DNA from: Escherichia phage vB_EcoM_E9.1
Length of the DNA: 64,000 nucleotides
Strand: one strand, 5' to 3'
Sequence record: PP886230
The first letter of the stretch is position 1; the number at the start of each line of letters is the position of its first letter. Below are positions 61,354-64,000 of this stretch, piece by piece. The notes beneath the pieces are model-generated. The model was not told the origin of the DNA and ran no database searches. It saw only the letters and a program-made list of their open reading frames with translations. The translations under genes were made by a program, and so were the position numbers.

Positions 61354-61385
61354 AAAACTATTTTAAAAGTATTTGTAGAAAGTAC

Positions 61386-61445
61386 TTGCACCGTACTGAT
61401 AAAAGCGTATAATGTTTTACATCGAGAGCGGGAACACTTCCCGCT
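61386..61445 (+). promoter_or_regulatory. early promoter + 5-prime leader hairpin
   Basis: TTGCAC, 16-nt spacer, TATAAT, GTTTTACATC, then hairpin AGCGGGAA-CAC-TTCCCGCT and SD AAGAGAG. Confidence 0.65.
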
Positions 61446-61468
61446 ACACTTTAAGAGAGATTAATACG

Positions 61469-61831
61469 ATGGCAACTCAAATCACCAAAATTATTGCTAA
61501 CCTGGTTAACTTCCGCGACGAGATGAAAGATCTTCCGGCGGCGACGGTTAAAACTCACATTGACGCATACCGCGAACTGATTAAAATGCTGCCGCTTAAG
61601 CGTGAACAATACGCCGCTACCGTGATGCTTGATGCGATGATCCATAAGATGATCGCCAGTGATTTGACGATGGTTTATCAGTATATGGGCGAAAATTTCG
61701 CGGTGTGTAGTAAGCCAGTACCAGGGATGGCAACAACTGAGGAATTGCACGGCTTAAACTTAAAACAAGATGCATGGGATAATATGCCTCGTTTCCTGGT
61801 ATGGGCTGACAGTGGCAAAATTTACAAATAA
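61469..61831 (+). CDS. hypothetical protein (GC-richer early gene)
   Basis: ~120 aa from MATQITKIIANL; track start 61412 would lie inside the promoter/hairpin; codon usage visibly GC-richer than the rest of the window. Confidence 0.6.
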   Translation: MATQITKIIANLVNFRDEMKDLPAATVKTHIDAYRELIKMLPLKREQYAATVMLDAMIHKMIASDLTMVYQYMGENFAVCSKPVPGMATTEELHGLNLKQDAWDNMPRFLVWADSGKIYK

Positions 61832-61845
61832 GTTTAATAAAGTAC

Positions 61846-61904
61846 TTGCAAACTATGTTTAATGGCGTATAATGTTTTACATCAGGTGGGGAATAGTTCC
61901 CCAC
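61846..61904 (+). promoter_or_regulatory. early promoter + 5-prime leader hairpin
   Basis: TTGCAA, 16-nt spacer, TATAAT, GTTTTACATC, hairpin GTGGGGAA-TAG-TTCCCCAC. Confidence 0.65.
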
Positions 61905-61926
61905 TATATAAGAGGATTAAAAAAAA

Positions 61927-62166
61927 ATGGCTAAATCAAAAATGTTCTTAGGTCACAAAAACAAAACTCATTGGAATGTAAGCCTGTGGATTAATAACGA
62001 TGAGGGATTGTATCGGTTGGCCCTGGACTTTATTGCCGCCAATACTAATCGCAATGATGCGGCCCGTCATATGATGTTATTTTTAGAACAGACTGGACAA
62101 GATAAAACACCGGACGGATTCAAATATAGCACTACTGCGATCCGTGCGGCGATGGTTGGAATGTAA
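61927..62166 (+). CDS. hypothetical protein (GC-richer early gene)
   Basis: ORF 79 aa. Confidence 0.6.
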   Translation: MAKSKMFLGHKNKTHWNVSLWINNDEGLYRLALDFIAANTNRNDAARHMMLFLEQTGQDKTPDGFKYSTTAIRAAMVGM

Positions 62167-62254
62167 TAGAATAGAATTTATTTAAAGTACTATTGCACGG
62201 GGATAGTACTTTATAATAGTGTTTTATTCATACACCAACGATAAGGGCAACAGC

Positions 62255-62521
62255 ATGAATATTAAGTATTTTGCGACGCGTGAACAAGCTCGGATCGCCG
62301 CTCGCCAGGACGGGGCAACGTTTAAAGATATGGGCGTACAATCGGAACGTGGTAAACGTTGGGCCATTGTAAAGCGTAGTACCGCCAGATCATTACAGTA
62401 CTGGTTAGCGGCCTTAAAAAGTCCCGATAGTGTATCGCGTCGAGTGGTAGAAATAAAGCTCGACCGAAAGGGCAACCGCGTGACCGTGTACCGTACTAAA
62501 AAGATTGCAGTACTTGAATAA
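62255..62521 (+). CDS. hypothetical basic protein (GC-richer early gene)
   Basis: ~88 aa from MNIKYFATREQARIAARQDG after AAGGG (track start 62219); preceded by a degenerate copy of the early promoter with a short 13-nt spacer. Confidence 0.55.
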   Translation: MNIKYFATREQARIAARQDGATFKDMGVQSERGKRWAIVKRSTARSLQYWLAALKSPDSVSRRVVEIKLDRKGNRVTVYRTKKIAVLE

Positions 62522-62528
62522 AAAGTAC

Positions 62529-62587
62529 TTGCAAACTATGTTTAAAGGCGTATAATGTTTTACATCGAGAGCGGGAACTCTTCCCGC
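62529..62587 (+). promoter_or_regulatory. early promoter + 5-prime leader hairpin
   Basis: TTGCAA, 16-nt spacer, TATAAT, GTTTTACATC, hairpin GCGGGAA-CTC-TTCCCGC. Confidence 0.65.
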
Positions 62588-62608
62588 CTATAACCTGGAG
62601 TAATAAAA

Positions 62609-62839
62609 ATGACTAATATGTATATGACTGAAGTTAAAACCGTAAAAGATACTACCACGAATAAAACTACTTACTTACAGCGGATCTGTGGTGTATGGCA
62701 ACGTATCAGCAAATCAAAGTACTTTAAATTAACATCATATGCAAACCGTTCTGATTCATTCAGTACTGAAATAAAAGGTAATAAAGTACACCAATACGGC
62801 ACTTATTATTATTACAGCCTGGACGCGATTGCAGTATAA
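62609..62839 (+). CDS. hypothetical protein
   Basis: ORF 76 aa. Confidence 0.55.
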   Translation: MTNMYMTEVKTVKDTTTNKTTYLQRICGVWQRISKSKYFKLTSYANRSDSFSTEIKGNKVHQYGTYYYYSLDAIAV

Positions 62840-62869
62840 GCAGTTTACAAATCTTTACAATTGCCGGTA

Positions 62870-62898
62870 TTGACTTATTTTGTCAGTACTGGCATAAT
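62870..62898 (+). promoter_or_regulatory. sigma70-type promoter without obvious gene
   Basis: TTGACT, 17-nt spacer containing CAGTACTG, CATAAT; downstream is ~180 nt of non-coding sequence with TAGGGTGCGGGAGT and TGCACCCGGTGGG boxes also seen at ~60830-60995. Confidence 0.45.
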
Positions 62899-63088
62899 GT
62901 ATTCATTGGCAGATAAGCCGTAGCCCATAGGGTGCGGGAGTGTATCTATAGAAAAATTAGTTTAGTATAGTTACAATTGTGCACCCGGTGGGTTAGCTGT
63001 TGTCATGGGGTATATTATGCCAGTACTTGATAATGCTGTCAATACTTTTTTTTACTATCCAGTACAGAAAACTATTTTTAAAAAGTAC

Positions 63089-63116
63089 TTGCAAACTATG
63101 TTTAAAGGCGTATAAT
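63089..63116 (+). promoter_or_regulatory. early promoter with no ORF downstream
   Basis: TTGCAA, 16-nt spacer, TATAAT, GTTTTACATC, then a ~90-nt structured segment before the next promoter. Confidence 0.6.
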
Positions 63117-63207
63117 GTTTTACATCAGGACGGGGGAACGAAATAAGTAACTTCCCGTTAAGTAGCCCAGGAGTAAGGCACACGAAAAACTCCCCTGATA
63201 AAATAGT

Positions 63208-63235
63208 TTGACAAATGTTTTTAAAAGCGTATAAT
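63208..63235 (+). promoter_or_regulatory. early promoter
   Basis: TTGACA, 16-nt spacer, TATAAT, ACTTACATC, SD GAGGG, ATG 63268. Confidence 0.65.
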
Positions 63236-63267
63236 ACTTACATCAACTACTGAATGAGGGTTACAAA

Positions 63268-63879
63268 ATGAAAACTATCACTACTACTACTTTCGTTATG
63301 GATTTTTCTGAATTGAACGCAGAACAAAAAACGTCAGCTATCGAACTGGTTCGGGAACGTGAAAAAAACTCAAACGACAATTATTTTTCTGAAAGTGAAA
63401 TTGAATACTATAAAGAAACAGTACTACCGGAATATGGCATTAATGACGCTGAAATACAATTCAGTGGCTTTTGGTCCCAGGGTGACGGTGCATCAATCAG
63501 TACTGACCACGTTGACGCAGTGAAGTTTTTACGCAAGGTAAGAGCATTAACTAAGTATCGCTCAATCCGTCACTTGCTGAATGAAGATGATTTGGCGATG
63601 AGTGTAAAGCGTTCGCACTCCCACTACTCGCATGAGAATACTGTAAGCGGGTACATTGAATCGGCTTACACTGATTTAACCGCAAAACAAGAAACGTTAG
63701 TTAATGAGCTTGAGGAACTACTCACTGATACTATTCGTGAATTGTCCCGCAAGTTGTACCGTGATTTAGAGAATGCATATGAGGATCAATTCACTACTGA
63801 AAACATTACGGCACTGATTGAGGGTAACGAGTATCAATTCAATGTTATTGATGGCGTAGTGGAATCAATCGAATATTAA
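63268..63879 (+). CDS. hypothetical acidic protein (GC-richer early gene)
   Basis: ORF 203 aa; acidic; function not recognised. Confidence 0.65.
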   Translation: MKTITTTTFVMDFSELNAEQKTSAIELVREREKNSNDNYFSESEIEYYKETVLPEYGINDAEIQFSGFWSQGDGASISTDHVDAVKFLRKVRALTKYRSIRHLLNEDDLAMSVKRSHSHYSHENTVSGYIESAYTDLTAKQETLVNELEELLTDTIRELSRKLYRDLENAYEDQFTTENITALIEGNEYQFNVIDGVVESIEY

Positions 63880-63891
63880 TTTAAAAAGTAC

Positions 63892-63951
63892 TTGCAAACT
63901 AAGTTTAAAAGCGTATAATACTTTATATCGAGAGCGGGAATAGTTCCCGCT
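63892..63951 (+). promoter_or_regulatory. early promoter + 5-prime leader hairpin
   Basis: TTGCAA, 16-nt spacer, TATAAT, ACTTTATATC, hairpin AGCGGGAA-TAG-TTCCCGCT, SD GAGG. Confidence 0.65.
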
Positions 63952-63971
63952 ACTAATGAGGAATACTACAA

Positions 63972-64000
63972 ATGAATACTTTTACCTTCGCTCAATTGAA
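63972..64000 (+). CDS. hypothetical protein, 5-prime fragment (runs off window)
   Basis: ATG after SD; MNTFTFAQL.. continues beyond the window. Confidence 0.4.

Follow-up and report, generated by a model that had tools for sequence, protein, structure and literature searches.

A repeated promoter and leader-hairpin cassette in the terminal repeat of an Asteriusvirus-type jumbo coliphage, with features of a pre-early gene module

The pre-early region of phage T5, which acts first, lies in a terminal repeat and is made up of small genes with host-sigma promoters. In phage SPO1, a host-takeover module fills the terminal redundancy (PMC10531801). The jumbo phage PA5oct, which shares its clade with the one considered here, transcribes many genes of its long direct terminal repeat (DTR) at high levels early, depends on the host RNA polymerase, carries TTGAC/TATAAT promoters and has two abundant non-coding RNAs in the DTR (PMC7318152). 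For phage CBB, also of this clade, RpoD-like promoters with UP-like elements have been predicted in the presumed early region and the terminal repeat (PMC5259590). Here we describe a promoter cassette with a leader hairpin that is repeated in 64,000 nucleotides (nt) of Escherichia phage vB_EcoM_E9.1 (record PP886230; this whole stretch is called the window), in a block of five open reading frames (ORFs) at 61380-64000 which, by homology, lies near the start of a DTR of ~21 kb.

Like the corresponding regions of T5 and SPO1, this DTR is a long terminal repeat with many small, co-oriented genes of unknown function behind what are predicted to be strong host-sigma promoters. Unlike them, it is larger (~21 kb, ~50 genes), has close to one predicted promoter per gene, places a conserved 5' stem-loop on roughly half of its genes and carries the palindrome AGTACT inside its promoters. 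PA5oct and CBB share with it a long DTR or early region with host-type promoters, and early transcription has been measured in PA5oct; the comparison differs at the leaders, as judged by the text of the two papers, in which “hairpin” occurs zero times, as does “stem-loop” in that on CBB.

Small hairpins near the start of a message have several precedents. The T7 gene 10 leader begins with a similar GGGAGA...UUUCCC stem-loop, its 5' arm G-rich and its 3' arm C/U-rich like those described below. The boxB/nut elements of lambda and the put elements of HK022, one or two per genome, have defined loops, recognised by N or RNA polymerase, and act in antitermination. They too are small hairpins transcribed immediately 3' of early promoters; the present element differs in its dozens of copies and free loops, with no terminators between the genes of the window block. 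In the ompA and papA leaders, as here, a ribosome site that is left free follows a short stable hairpin placed at or close to the 5' end, whereas in comparison with both of these and the T7 leader, the present hairpin is predicted to leave 3-7 unpaired 5' nt and is found on ~20 messages. That 5'-terminal stem-loops stabilise E. coli mRNAs is documented by studies which PMC3997798 lists (Emory et al., 1992; Bouvet & Belasco, 1992; Arnold et al., 1998; Bricker & Belasco, 1999). The literature searched gave no account of the cassette, of the hairpin or of a bias for AGTACT, and promoters are not discussed in the phAPEC6, fEgEco12 and fENko-Kae01 papers; in this literature, the hairpin leaders and the one-promoter-per-gene layout across genera are undescribed.

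A megablast search of positions 61000-64000 against phage records returned 116 matching records. The top match was Escherichia phage fEgEco12 (97.2% identity, 100% of the query, record positions 1273-4272), followed by other Asteriusvirus-type jumbo coliphages of ~350-385 kb (121Q, phAPEC6, G17, SP27), and the synteny of the block is kept in ~100 related phage records. Judged by these alignments, the source of the window is an Asteriusvirus-type jumbo coliphage (121Q / PBECO4 / fEgEco12-like, of the ‘Rak2-like’ clade). The genome of fEgEco12 is linear, with 374,733 bp and DTRs of 20,993 bp, its termini and DTR having been determined with PhageTerm and confirmed by restriction digests (PMC13070987). 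When window positions 59400-61500 were aligned with the first 1780 bp of the fEgEco12 record, position 1 of that record fell at window position 59,745; identity is near-perfect rightward of this point, and the record has no sequence to its left. As the first position of the window corresponds to ~292.9 kb on fEgEco12, the window would take in the final ~60 kb of unique sequence before it enters the right-hand terminal repeat. Position 59745 is thus the homologous position of the left physical genome end and the DTR start, and 61380-64000 becomes the first protein-coding stretch of the ~21-kb repeat; homology to the mapped fEgEco12 terminus puts the block inside the DTR.

The original prediction, made from the letters of the window, had proposed a recurrent promoter cassette with 16-nt spacing, and this was borne out. 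A repeat search found a 97-nt unit five times, at 61376, 61836, 62519, 63079 and 63882, and nowhere else in the 64 kb. Its elements follow in the order AGTACT-TTGCAA, 16 nt, TATAAT, a G/C hairpin and a Shine-Dalgarno sequence. The 33-nt promoter core has four matches at ≤3 mismatches against 0.00 expected, and the 45-nt consensus, searched over the whole window at ≤16 mismatches, has five sites on the + strand and none on the - strand. The -35 element is TTGCAA or TTGCAC, the -10 element TATAAT, and a sigma70 promoter scan scored these predicted promoters at 10-12 consensus matches of 12. All five ORFs of the block (76-203 amino acids, aa) are on the + strand. The cassette had been thought to precede each of them, which is so for ORF1, ORF2 and ORF4; ORF3 and ORF5 have other upstream elements, which lack the hairpin.

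Beyond the window, the cassette is repeated within the DTR, confined to it, and stops at its boundary; the scope of this statement is the window, three flanked loci (fEgEco12, 121Q and Klebsiella phage fENko-Kae01) and a pattern scan of IMG/VR. The fEgEco12 DTR holds ~56 annotated small genes, every one on the + strand, nearly all of them behind an upstream gap of ~80-90 nt with a predicted promoter; directly beyond the DTR end (20,993) come tight operons with 4-nt gene overlaps. Positions 1-24,272 of this phage contain 20 cassette matches on the + strand and none on the - strand, ~24 hairpin matches are spread across its DTR, and each DTR studied has ~20 promoter cassettes. Hits of a covariance model of the hairpin were confined to 1.7-20.1 kb in fEgEco12 and to 20.9-38.1 kb of a 42.8-kb locus in 121Q, and in fENko-Kae01, whose PhageTerm-defined DTR measures 19,736 bp, all lay below 19.7 kb. 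The latter phage belongs to another genus, with ~29% average nucleotide identity to fEgEco12 (PMC13070987 table), and its cassette is of the same design (AAAGTACTTGCA...TATAATGGTTTGCATA-GGGGGAA-acatc-TTCCCCC-ACTAATTAAGGA...ATG). The strict promoter-plus-hairpin pattern matched five contigs in IMG/VR, and in three genomes of ~350 kb the exact matches fell within one span of ~14 kb or less each.

In general, a DTR promoter consists of an A/T-rich stretch, AGTACT abutting a -35 element of TTGCAA or TTGACA, 16-17 nt, and TATAAT; in some, CAGTACTG lies directly 5' of the -10 element and supplies a TGn extended -10. Three classes can be told apart, namely AAAGTACTTGCA...GTATAAT, TTGACA...CAGTACTGTATAAT, in which a TG gives an extended -10, and a hairpin-less class CAGTACTATTGACA...AGTACTGGCATAAT.

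About half of the DTR units have a predicted transcript that starts with a stem-loop of 7-9 bp with a G-rich and a C-rich arm. In the window, GGGAA-N3-TTCCC occurs four times against 0.01 expected, each time inside the block, and the covariance model, run unfiltered over the 64 kb, found these four sites only (E 6e-6 to 3e-4), with their weaker palindromic mirrors on the opposite strand; the next, unrelated match had an E value of 0.11. The hairpin had been predicted as GCGGGAA-NNN-TTCCCGC, which describes the stem in three copies, the remaining one having a GTGGGGAA/TTCCCCAC stem. In minimum-free-energy folds, the four leaders reach -12.0 to -14.2 kcal/mol and leave the Shine-Dalgarno sequence and the AUG unpaired.

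Behind promoters of this kind we catalogued 46 distinct stems of 6-12 bp, mostly 7-9, with loops of 3-6 nt and free sequence (12-13 nt in one copy). The stem begins 8-15 nt after the -10 element, with modes at 10 and 12, and is separated by 4-11 nt from the Shine-Dalgarno sequence and by 14-24 nt (median 20) from the start codon. If transcription starts 6-8 nt past TATAAT, the stem would begin at ~+4 to +8 of the RNA, behind 3-4 unpaired nt in leaders of the Klebsiella-phage type and 5-7 in those of the Asteriusvirus type. No U-run follows the stems, the next letters being ACTAA, CTAT or TGGTAA, and a terminator scan found nothing at the hairpin sites or between the genes of the window block; the reading of the hairpins as intrinsic (Rho-independent) terminators was discarded on account of the missing U-run. 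A search of Rfam 15 with the 24-kb fEgEco12 DTR locus gave two chance-level matches only (E ~0.8). As a separate observation, the deposited starts of fEgEco12 g08 (4467) and g55 (20129) are ATG codons inside the hairpin loop (GGGAGAAATGG...), and the ATG that follows the downstream Shine-Dalgarno sequence is the likelier start in both.

Pairing was assessed with 42 distinct stems, fixed in register by taking 10 nt on each side of the loop and a constant dummy loop. A MAFFT alignment of whole leaders was not used for pair counts, as it misaligned stems whose loops measure 3, 4 and 5 nt, and the covariance-model alignment was set aside, as it mixed sense hits with antisense mirrors and forced long loops, which makes its raw G.U/A.C totals unreliable. 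In the register-fixed set, 86.2% of cells were paired, compared with 74.4 ± 1.1% when partners were shuffled (0/500 shuffles as high). The covariation score was 0.407, against 0.193 in shuffled sets (0/500) and 0.10-0.19 when the partner was slid by 1-3 columns, and changes on both sides were seen in all nine stem pairs. The main variable pair was G-C in 31 stems, G.U in seven, A-U in four and A.C in none; over the inner seven pairs there were 277 Watson-Crick combinations, 10 G.T and three A.C, and over the inner six, 10 G.T against one A.C. Orthologous cassettes keep the stem while changing its sequence, as in AGCGGGAA-cac-TTCCCGCT of the window and ACGGGGG-aaacg-CTCCCGT of 121Q. The presence of G.U rather than its mirror A.C, together with the variable spacing of the arms and the fixed sense-strand context, argues for pairing in the sense transcript and not for an operator in duplex DNA. 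On these comparisons, the stem is conserved as an RNA structure through compensatory changes.

The block opens with the promoter of cassette 1 (61379..61423, +; -35 TTGCAC at 61386-61391, -10 TATAAT at 61408-61413), followed by leader hairpin 1 (61427..61445, +; AGCGGGAA-CAC-TTCCCGCT, 8 bp, -12.5 kcal/mol, z -3.5) and ORF1 (61469..61831, +), a protein of 120 aa and unknown function (phrog_7352) that equals the product of 121Q gene 266 in length. Cassette 2 has its promoter at 61839..61883 (+; -35 61846-61851, -10 61868-61873) and its hairpin at 61885..61905 (+; GGTGGGGAA-TAG-TTCCCCACT, 9 bp including one G.U, -14.2 kcal/mol), ahead of ORF2 (61927..62166, +; 79 aa, Pfam DUF7249 / phrog_871). 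Upstream of ORF3 (62255..62521, +; 88 aa, very basic with an isoelectric point, pI, of 11, phrog_8127) stands a variant element at 62186..62217 (+), with TTGCAC flanked by two AGTACT, then TATAAT at 62212-62217; its spacing is poor for sigma70, the consensus scan did not call it, and the leader is unstructured. The promoter of cassette 3 (62522..62566, +; -35 62529-62534, -10 62551-62556) and its hairpin (62571..62587, +; GCGGGAA-CTC-TTCCCGC, 7 bp, -12.0 kcal/mol) precede ORF4 (62609..62839, +; 76 aa, phrog_5293).

Downstream lies a non-coding spacer (62840..63081) with convergent sigma70-like promoters at 62870-62898 on the + strand and 63042-63014 on the - strand, in which the repeated motif TAGGGTGCGGGAGTGTATC occupies 62928-62946. 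Cassette 4 (63082..63207, +; -35 63089-63094, -10 63111-63116) has no ORF: its promoter and long-looped hairpin give way to a region of ~80 nt with two hairpins, immediately 5' of the next promoter. It has paralogs at 5911 and 13609 in fEgEco12 and at 22079 and 32051 of the 121Q locus, and may encode a small non-coding RNA or serve ORF5 as an additional, tandem promoter that gives a long leader. The promoter of ORF5 itself (63208..63235, +) is TTGACA-16-TATAAT, with 12 of 12 consensus matches and an unstructured leader, and ORF5 (63268..63879, +) encodes 203 aa (phrog_5162). Cassette 5 (promoter 63885..63929, +; -35 63892-63897, -10 63914-63919) and leader hairpin 5 (63933..63951, +; AGCGGGAA-TAG-TTCCCGCT, 8 bp, -13.2 kcal/mol) lead into the start of a further small ORF (63972..64000, +), which continues past the end of the window and corresponds to fEgEco12 g07. 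On the other side of the block, the DTR begins with a non-coding head (59745..61378, +) in which both strands have sigma70-like promoters and CAGTACTG is present in many copies, along with short iterons (60540-60650) and an inverted Chi pair (60322-60341); this 1.6 kb could carry signals for packaging, replication or small RNAs.

The original prediction had treated the block as foreign or host-like cargo, and the homology searches told against this. All five products belong to phage protein families (PHROGs) only, ORF2 is the single one with a Pfam family, and a blastn search of 5,426 complete E. coli genomes with the DNA of the block gave no match. The suggestion that the 203-aa product of ORF5 is a DNA-mimic anti-restriction protein was not supported either. 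It is moderately acidic (pI 4.6, net charge ~-19), and no Ocr- or ArdA-like match was found in sequence, Pfam or fold searches. Its sequence had no hit in the PDB and none above threshold in Pfam, including any anti-restriction domain. The predicted fold is confident (pLDDT, the predicted local distance difference test score, 91.4) and matched no solved relative in a Foldseek search of the PDB (E ≥ 2) and uncharacterised phage proteins only in BFVD; a mimic with an unrelated fold could have escaped these searches. The family has ~400 relatives on contigs of jumbo phages and of rV5-like phages of ~135-140 kb, the named carriers being jumbo phages of Escherichia, Erwinia and Yersinia and rV5-like coliphages of ~137 kb. 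Invariant residues are S66, G67, F68, Q71, G72, D73, G74, A75, H122, Y164 and L167, with E123 near-invariant, and they form SGFxxQGDGA and H..E motifs that are more suggestive of catalysis or of a binding site. Elsewhere in the fEgEco12 DTR, Pfam confirmed a DksA/TraR-type zinc finger and a GNAT acetyltransferase, and did not confirm the annotated kinase and spackle.

A break in GC content and codon usage had been predicted at 61.4 kb. The break was found when computed, although it starts further upstream: the rise begins at ~59.5-60.0 kb, which is the DTR boundary. GC content is 0.392 in 61380-64000 and 0.343 in 1-59744, with one further kilobase of the window (45-46 kb) reaching 0.43, and GC content at third codon positions (GC3) reaches 0.417 when the five ORFs are pooled, the value for the 55 long ORFs in the rest of the window being 0.258 ± 0.064. 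ORF1-ORF3 have GC3 values of 0.44-0.50 (ORF1, 0.50) and so exceed the 95th percentile of the other ORFs, 0.365. The fraction of E. coli-optimal codons is 0.49-0.64 in the five ORFs against 0.43 ± 0.08; over the whole DTR it averages 0.552 ± 0.079 (51 genes), compared with 0.433 ± 0.079 outside (55 ORFs; Mann-Whitney p = 3e-10). Between DTR and outside, CTG changes from 27% to 8%, CCG from 30% to 5%, ATC from 47% to 16% and GGC from 28% to 7%, and CGC is also among the host-optimal codons favoured in the DTR; ATA (9% vs 30%) and AGA (9% vs 28%) go the other way, and there is no rise in CCC, CTC, GGG or AGG, which end in G or C and are non-optimal. As the shift spans the entire 21-kb DTR and favours host-optimal codons, translational tuning accounts for it better than import, and the best fit is an adaptation of the genes translated first to the tRNAs of the host. 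The tRNA genes of the window (Met/Ile-CAT, Asn-GTT and Thr-TGT, at 174-330 and 1998-2071) are the tail of a cluster to which a close relative adds Gly-TCC twice, Ser-TGA and Ser-GCT; the tRNAs at or near the window read mainly A-ending or rare codons.

We consider it probable, at about 0.6, that the block is part of a pre-early DTR module of the T5/SPO1 kind, read by the host RNA polymerase, with stem-loops that stabilise or insulate short mRNAs and with host-tuned codons. The DTR would then be a pre-early or host-takeover module of ~50 very small genes on one strand, most of them transcription units of their own behind near-consensus host sigma70 promoters. The 5'-proximal stem-loop would slow 5'-end-dependent decay (the RppH / RNase E pathway) and would also insulate the ribosome site from upstream sequence, so that the site stays single-stranded and open. 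Very short monocistronic messages would thereby be strongly expressed in the first minutes of infection, and the higher GC3 would reflect host-preferred codons in genes that are translated before phage tRNAs or other takeover functions become available. Phage early control had been proposed in the original prediction, and agrees with the sigma70-type promoters and with a position that matches the early genes of comparable phages; the timing itself, the transcription start sites and the stabilising function are all inferred, the timing by analogy with the systems described above. The roles suggested for the hairpin (stabilisation, processing or binding of a regulator) are reasonable ones for an RNA structure at the predicted transcript start.

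Several points weigh against this explanation. Protection in the classic experiments reportedly drops beyond ~2-4 unpaired nt, and with a start 6-8 nt past the -10 element the present leaders would have 3-7, so the Asteriusvirus copies may be sub-optimal stabilisers. Since there are no terminators between units, each hairpin would also be internal to read-through transcripts. The polarity of the arms is constant, with the G-run 5' and the C-run 3', and their sequence is near-constant, which goes beyond structural need; the copies could share one ancestral cassette, or a factor could recognise them. The stems compared for covariation were paralogs and orthologs, which are not independent, and their loop register was fixed by the hairpin finder. 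As regards codon usage, the fractions depend on the list of codons taken as optimal, CGG, which is non-optimal, rises from 1% to 17% in the DTR, and the non-coding DTR head is likewise GC-richer (0.384); from the last two, the region may have a compositional bias of its own, such as recombination of the repeat copies might cause, in addition to codon selection.

The near-constancy of the arms in both genera (GGGG[A/G]A[A] / [T]T[C/T]CCCC) would also suit an RNA operator, through which a phage RNA-binding protein or endoribonuclease jointly switches off (or on) the whole pre-early class in the manner of T4 RegA/RegB, and so would the restriction of the element to one temporal or positional class of genes and a GGAG-like 5' arm that recalls the target of T4 RegB. 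We regard this as unlikely, if worth keeping in view: the loops vary in sequence and in length (3-6 nt), where proteins that bind hairpins usually read loop bases, compensatory substitutions in the stem do occur, G-C to C-G and A-U to G-C among them, and no candidate binding protein was identified. A role within read-through polycistronic RNA, in which the hairpin would mark intercistronic processing sites or act as a 3'-end barrier to exonucleases, seems more doubtful. Upstream transcripts would cross each cassette in the absence of intrinsic terminators, and stems of -12 to -14 kcal/mol could stop exonucleases. However, the stems are too short for RNase III, the distance from stem to -10 element is tightly constrained (10-14 nt), and the stem occurs with two -35 classes yet always with the same ACAT/GCAT start region; the constrained distance and the constant start region suggest a role at the 5' end of the transcript itself.

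More speculative still is a two-part arrangement in which AGTACT is the site of a phage DNA-binding or DNA-modifying factor that marks the phage DNA and gates the pre-early promoters, and the hairpin is an RNA handle that first stabilises and then silences the class. That the block is foreign or host cargo under phage early promoters, with a DNA-mimic anti-restriction protein of 203 aa, we hold to be very unlikely. In its favour are host-like GC3 and codon usage, the acidity of the 203-aa product (pI 4.6) and the frequent presence of anti-restriction genes in the early regions of other phages; against this, the products fall in phage families only (that of the 203-aa protein on jumbo and rV5-like phage contigs), the E. 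coli genomes gave no blastn match, the codon shift extends over the whole DTR, and a confident model of ORF5 resembled neither Ocr nor ArdA and had no Pfam anti-restriction domain. Least credible of all is that the inverted repeat acts as DNA, whether as an operator for a dimeric repressor or roadblock at ~+15 or as an extruded hairpin promoter of the N4 kind for a phage RNA polymerase. It is indeed a near-perfect palindrome directly 3' of a promoter, and the early promoters of N4 are short hairpins with 3-nt loops. Yet the spacing of the half-sites varies from 3 to 6 nt, with a 12-13-nt loop in one copy, the excess of G.T over A.C on the sense strand (10 vs 1-3) is that expected of a sense RNA and not of a duplex or template-strand hairpin, and every copy lies behind a strong sigma70 consensus. 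The related phage PA5oct, moreover, needs the host RNA polymerase (PMC7318152).

With a T5/SPO1-like pre-early module as the preferred explanation, a block of hypothetical proteins acquires a setting, that of a terminal-repeat and probably first-expressed module, in a group of coliphages used in phage-therapy work. Each such phage would offer ~50 candidates for host-takeover or anti-defence functions, and for every one a promoter and leader are predicted. The compact cassette of promoter, hairpin and ribosome site, present in ~20 copies and across genera, provides a test bed for the effect of 5' structure on mRNA life and yield, and possibly an expression part, while the codon shift is a concrete case for the idea that the earliest phage genes match their codons to host tRNAs. 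How phage early regions are understood in general is unchanged, and we read the strategy as an ordinary one among large virulent phages.

AGTACT, a palindrome that frequently takes the form CAGTACTG, has 227 sites in the window and is ~10-fold over-represented across it (examples at 59033-63887). Its density is 3.3/kb before 59745 and 7.3/kb after, compared with 0.34/kb expected from base composition, and three of the four hexamers with the strongest over-representation are AGTACT, CAGTAC and GTACTG. Sites of AGTACT are found between genes as well as in each of the three codon phases; within ORFs there are 160 sites, against 48 ± 6 after synonymous-codon shuffling and 12-33 for palindromes of the same composition. 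In DTR promoters it takes two fixed positions, abutting either the -35 or the -10 element. No explanation for the bias was found, nor any mention of it in the literature searched, and a LexA-box reading of CAGTACTG-TATAAT was dropped for lack of CTG-N10-CAG.

Another motif of the DTRs, CCCATAGGGTGCGG(G/A)AGT(N)TATC, lies ~25-30 nt 3' of sigma70-like promoters in both genera. It occurs at 60985-61007 and 62922-62946 in the window, at ~16900 in fEgEco12 and at ~9240, ~11030 and ~14200 in fENko-Kae01; in the spacer at 62840-63081, it stands between the convergent promoters, which form a 35-nt inverted repeat. The motif is a candidate small-RNA family, for which Rfam gave no match.

Chi (GCTGGTGG) is found on the + strand 10 times in the fEgEco12 DTR (1-20993), 12 times in that of fENko-Kae01 (1-19736) and nine times in that of 121Q (19-38 kb), and on the - strand two, two and one times, respectively, with ~0.06 expected per strand. 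The inverted pair in the DTR head, CCACCAGC-N4-GCTGGTGG, is ~580 bp from the left physical end, and the orientation of the sites fits protection of both genome ends from RecBCD. The nearby iterons, GGATGGCT / GGACGGCTAAACGGCTAGAT at ~60540-60650, differ in copy number from those of fEgEco12 by a 16-nt indel.

In the unique part of the window, an array of ~10 or more paralogous genes of 370-430 aa occupies 41687-54576 on the - strand. Their 121Q annotation is that of RCC1-like ‘DNA condensation’ proteins, and they are rich in CCACCA/ACCACC repeats, which accounts for the negative GC skew there and for the GC peak at 45-46 kb. Immediately before the DTR boundary, at 58892-59471, are three tandem paralogous ORFs of ~60 aa; 121Q has a run of ~17 such genes at the same place.

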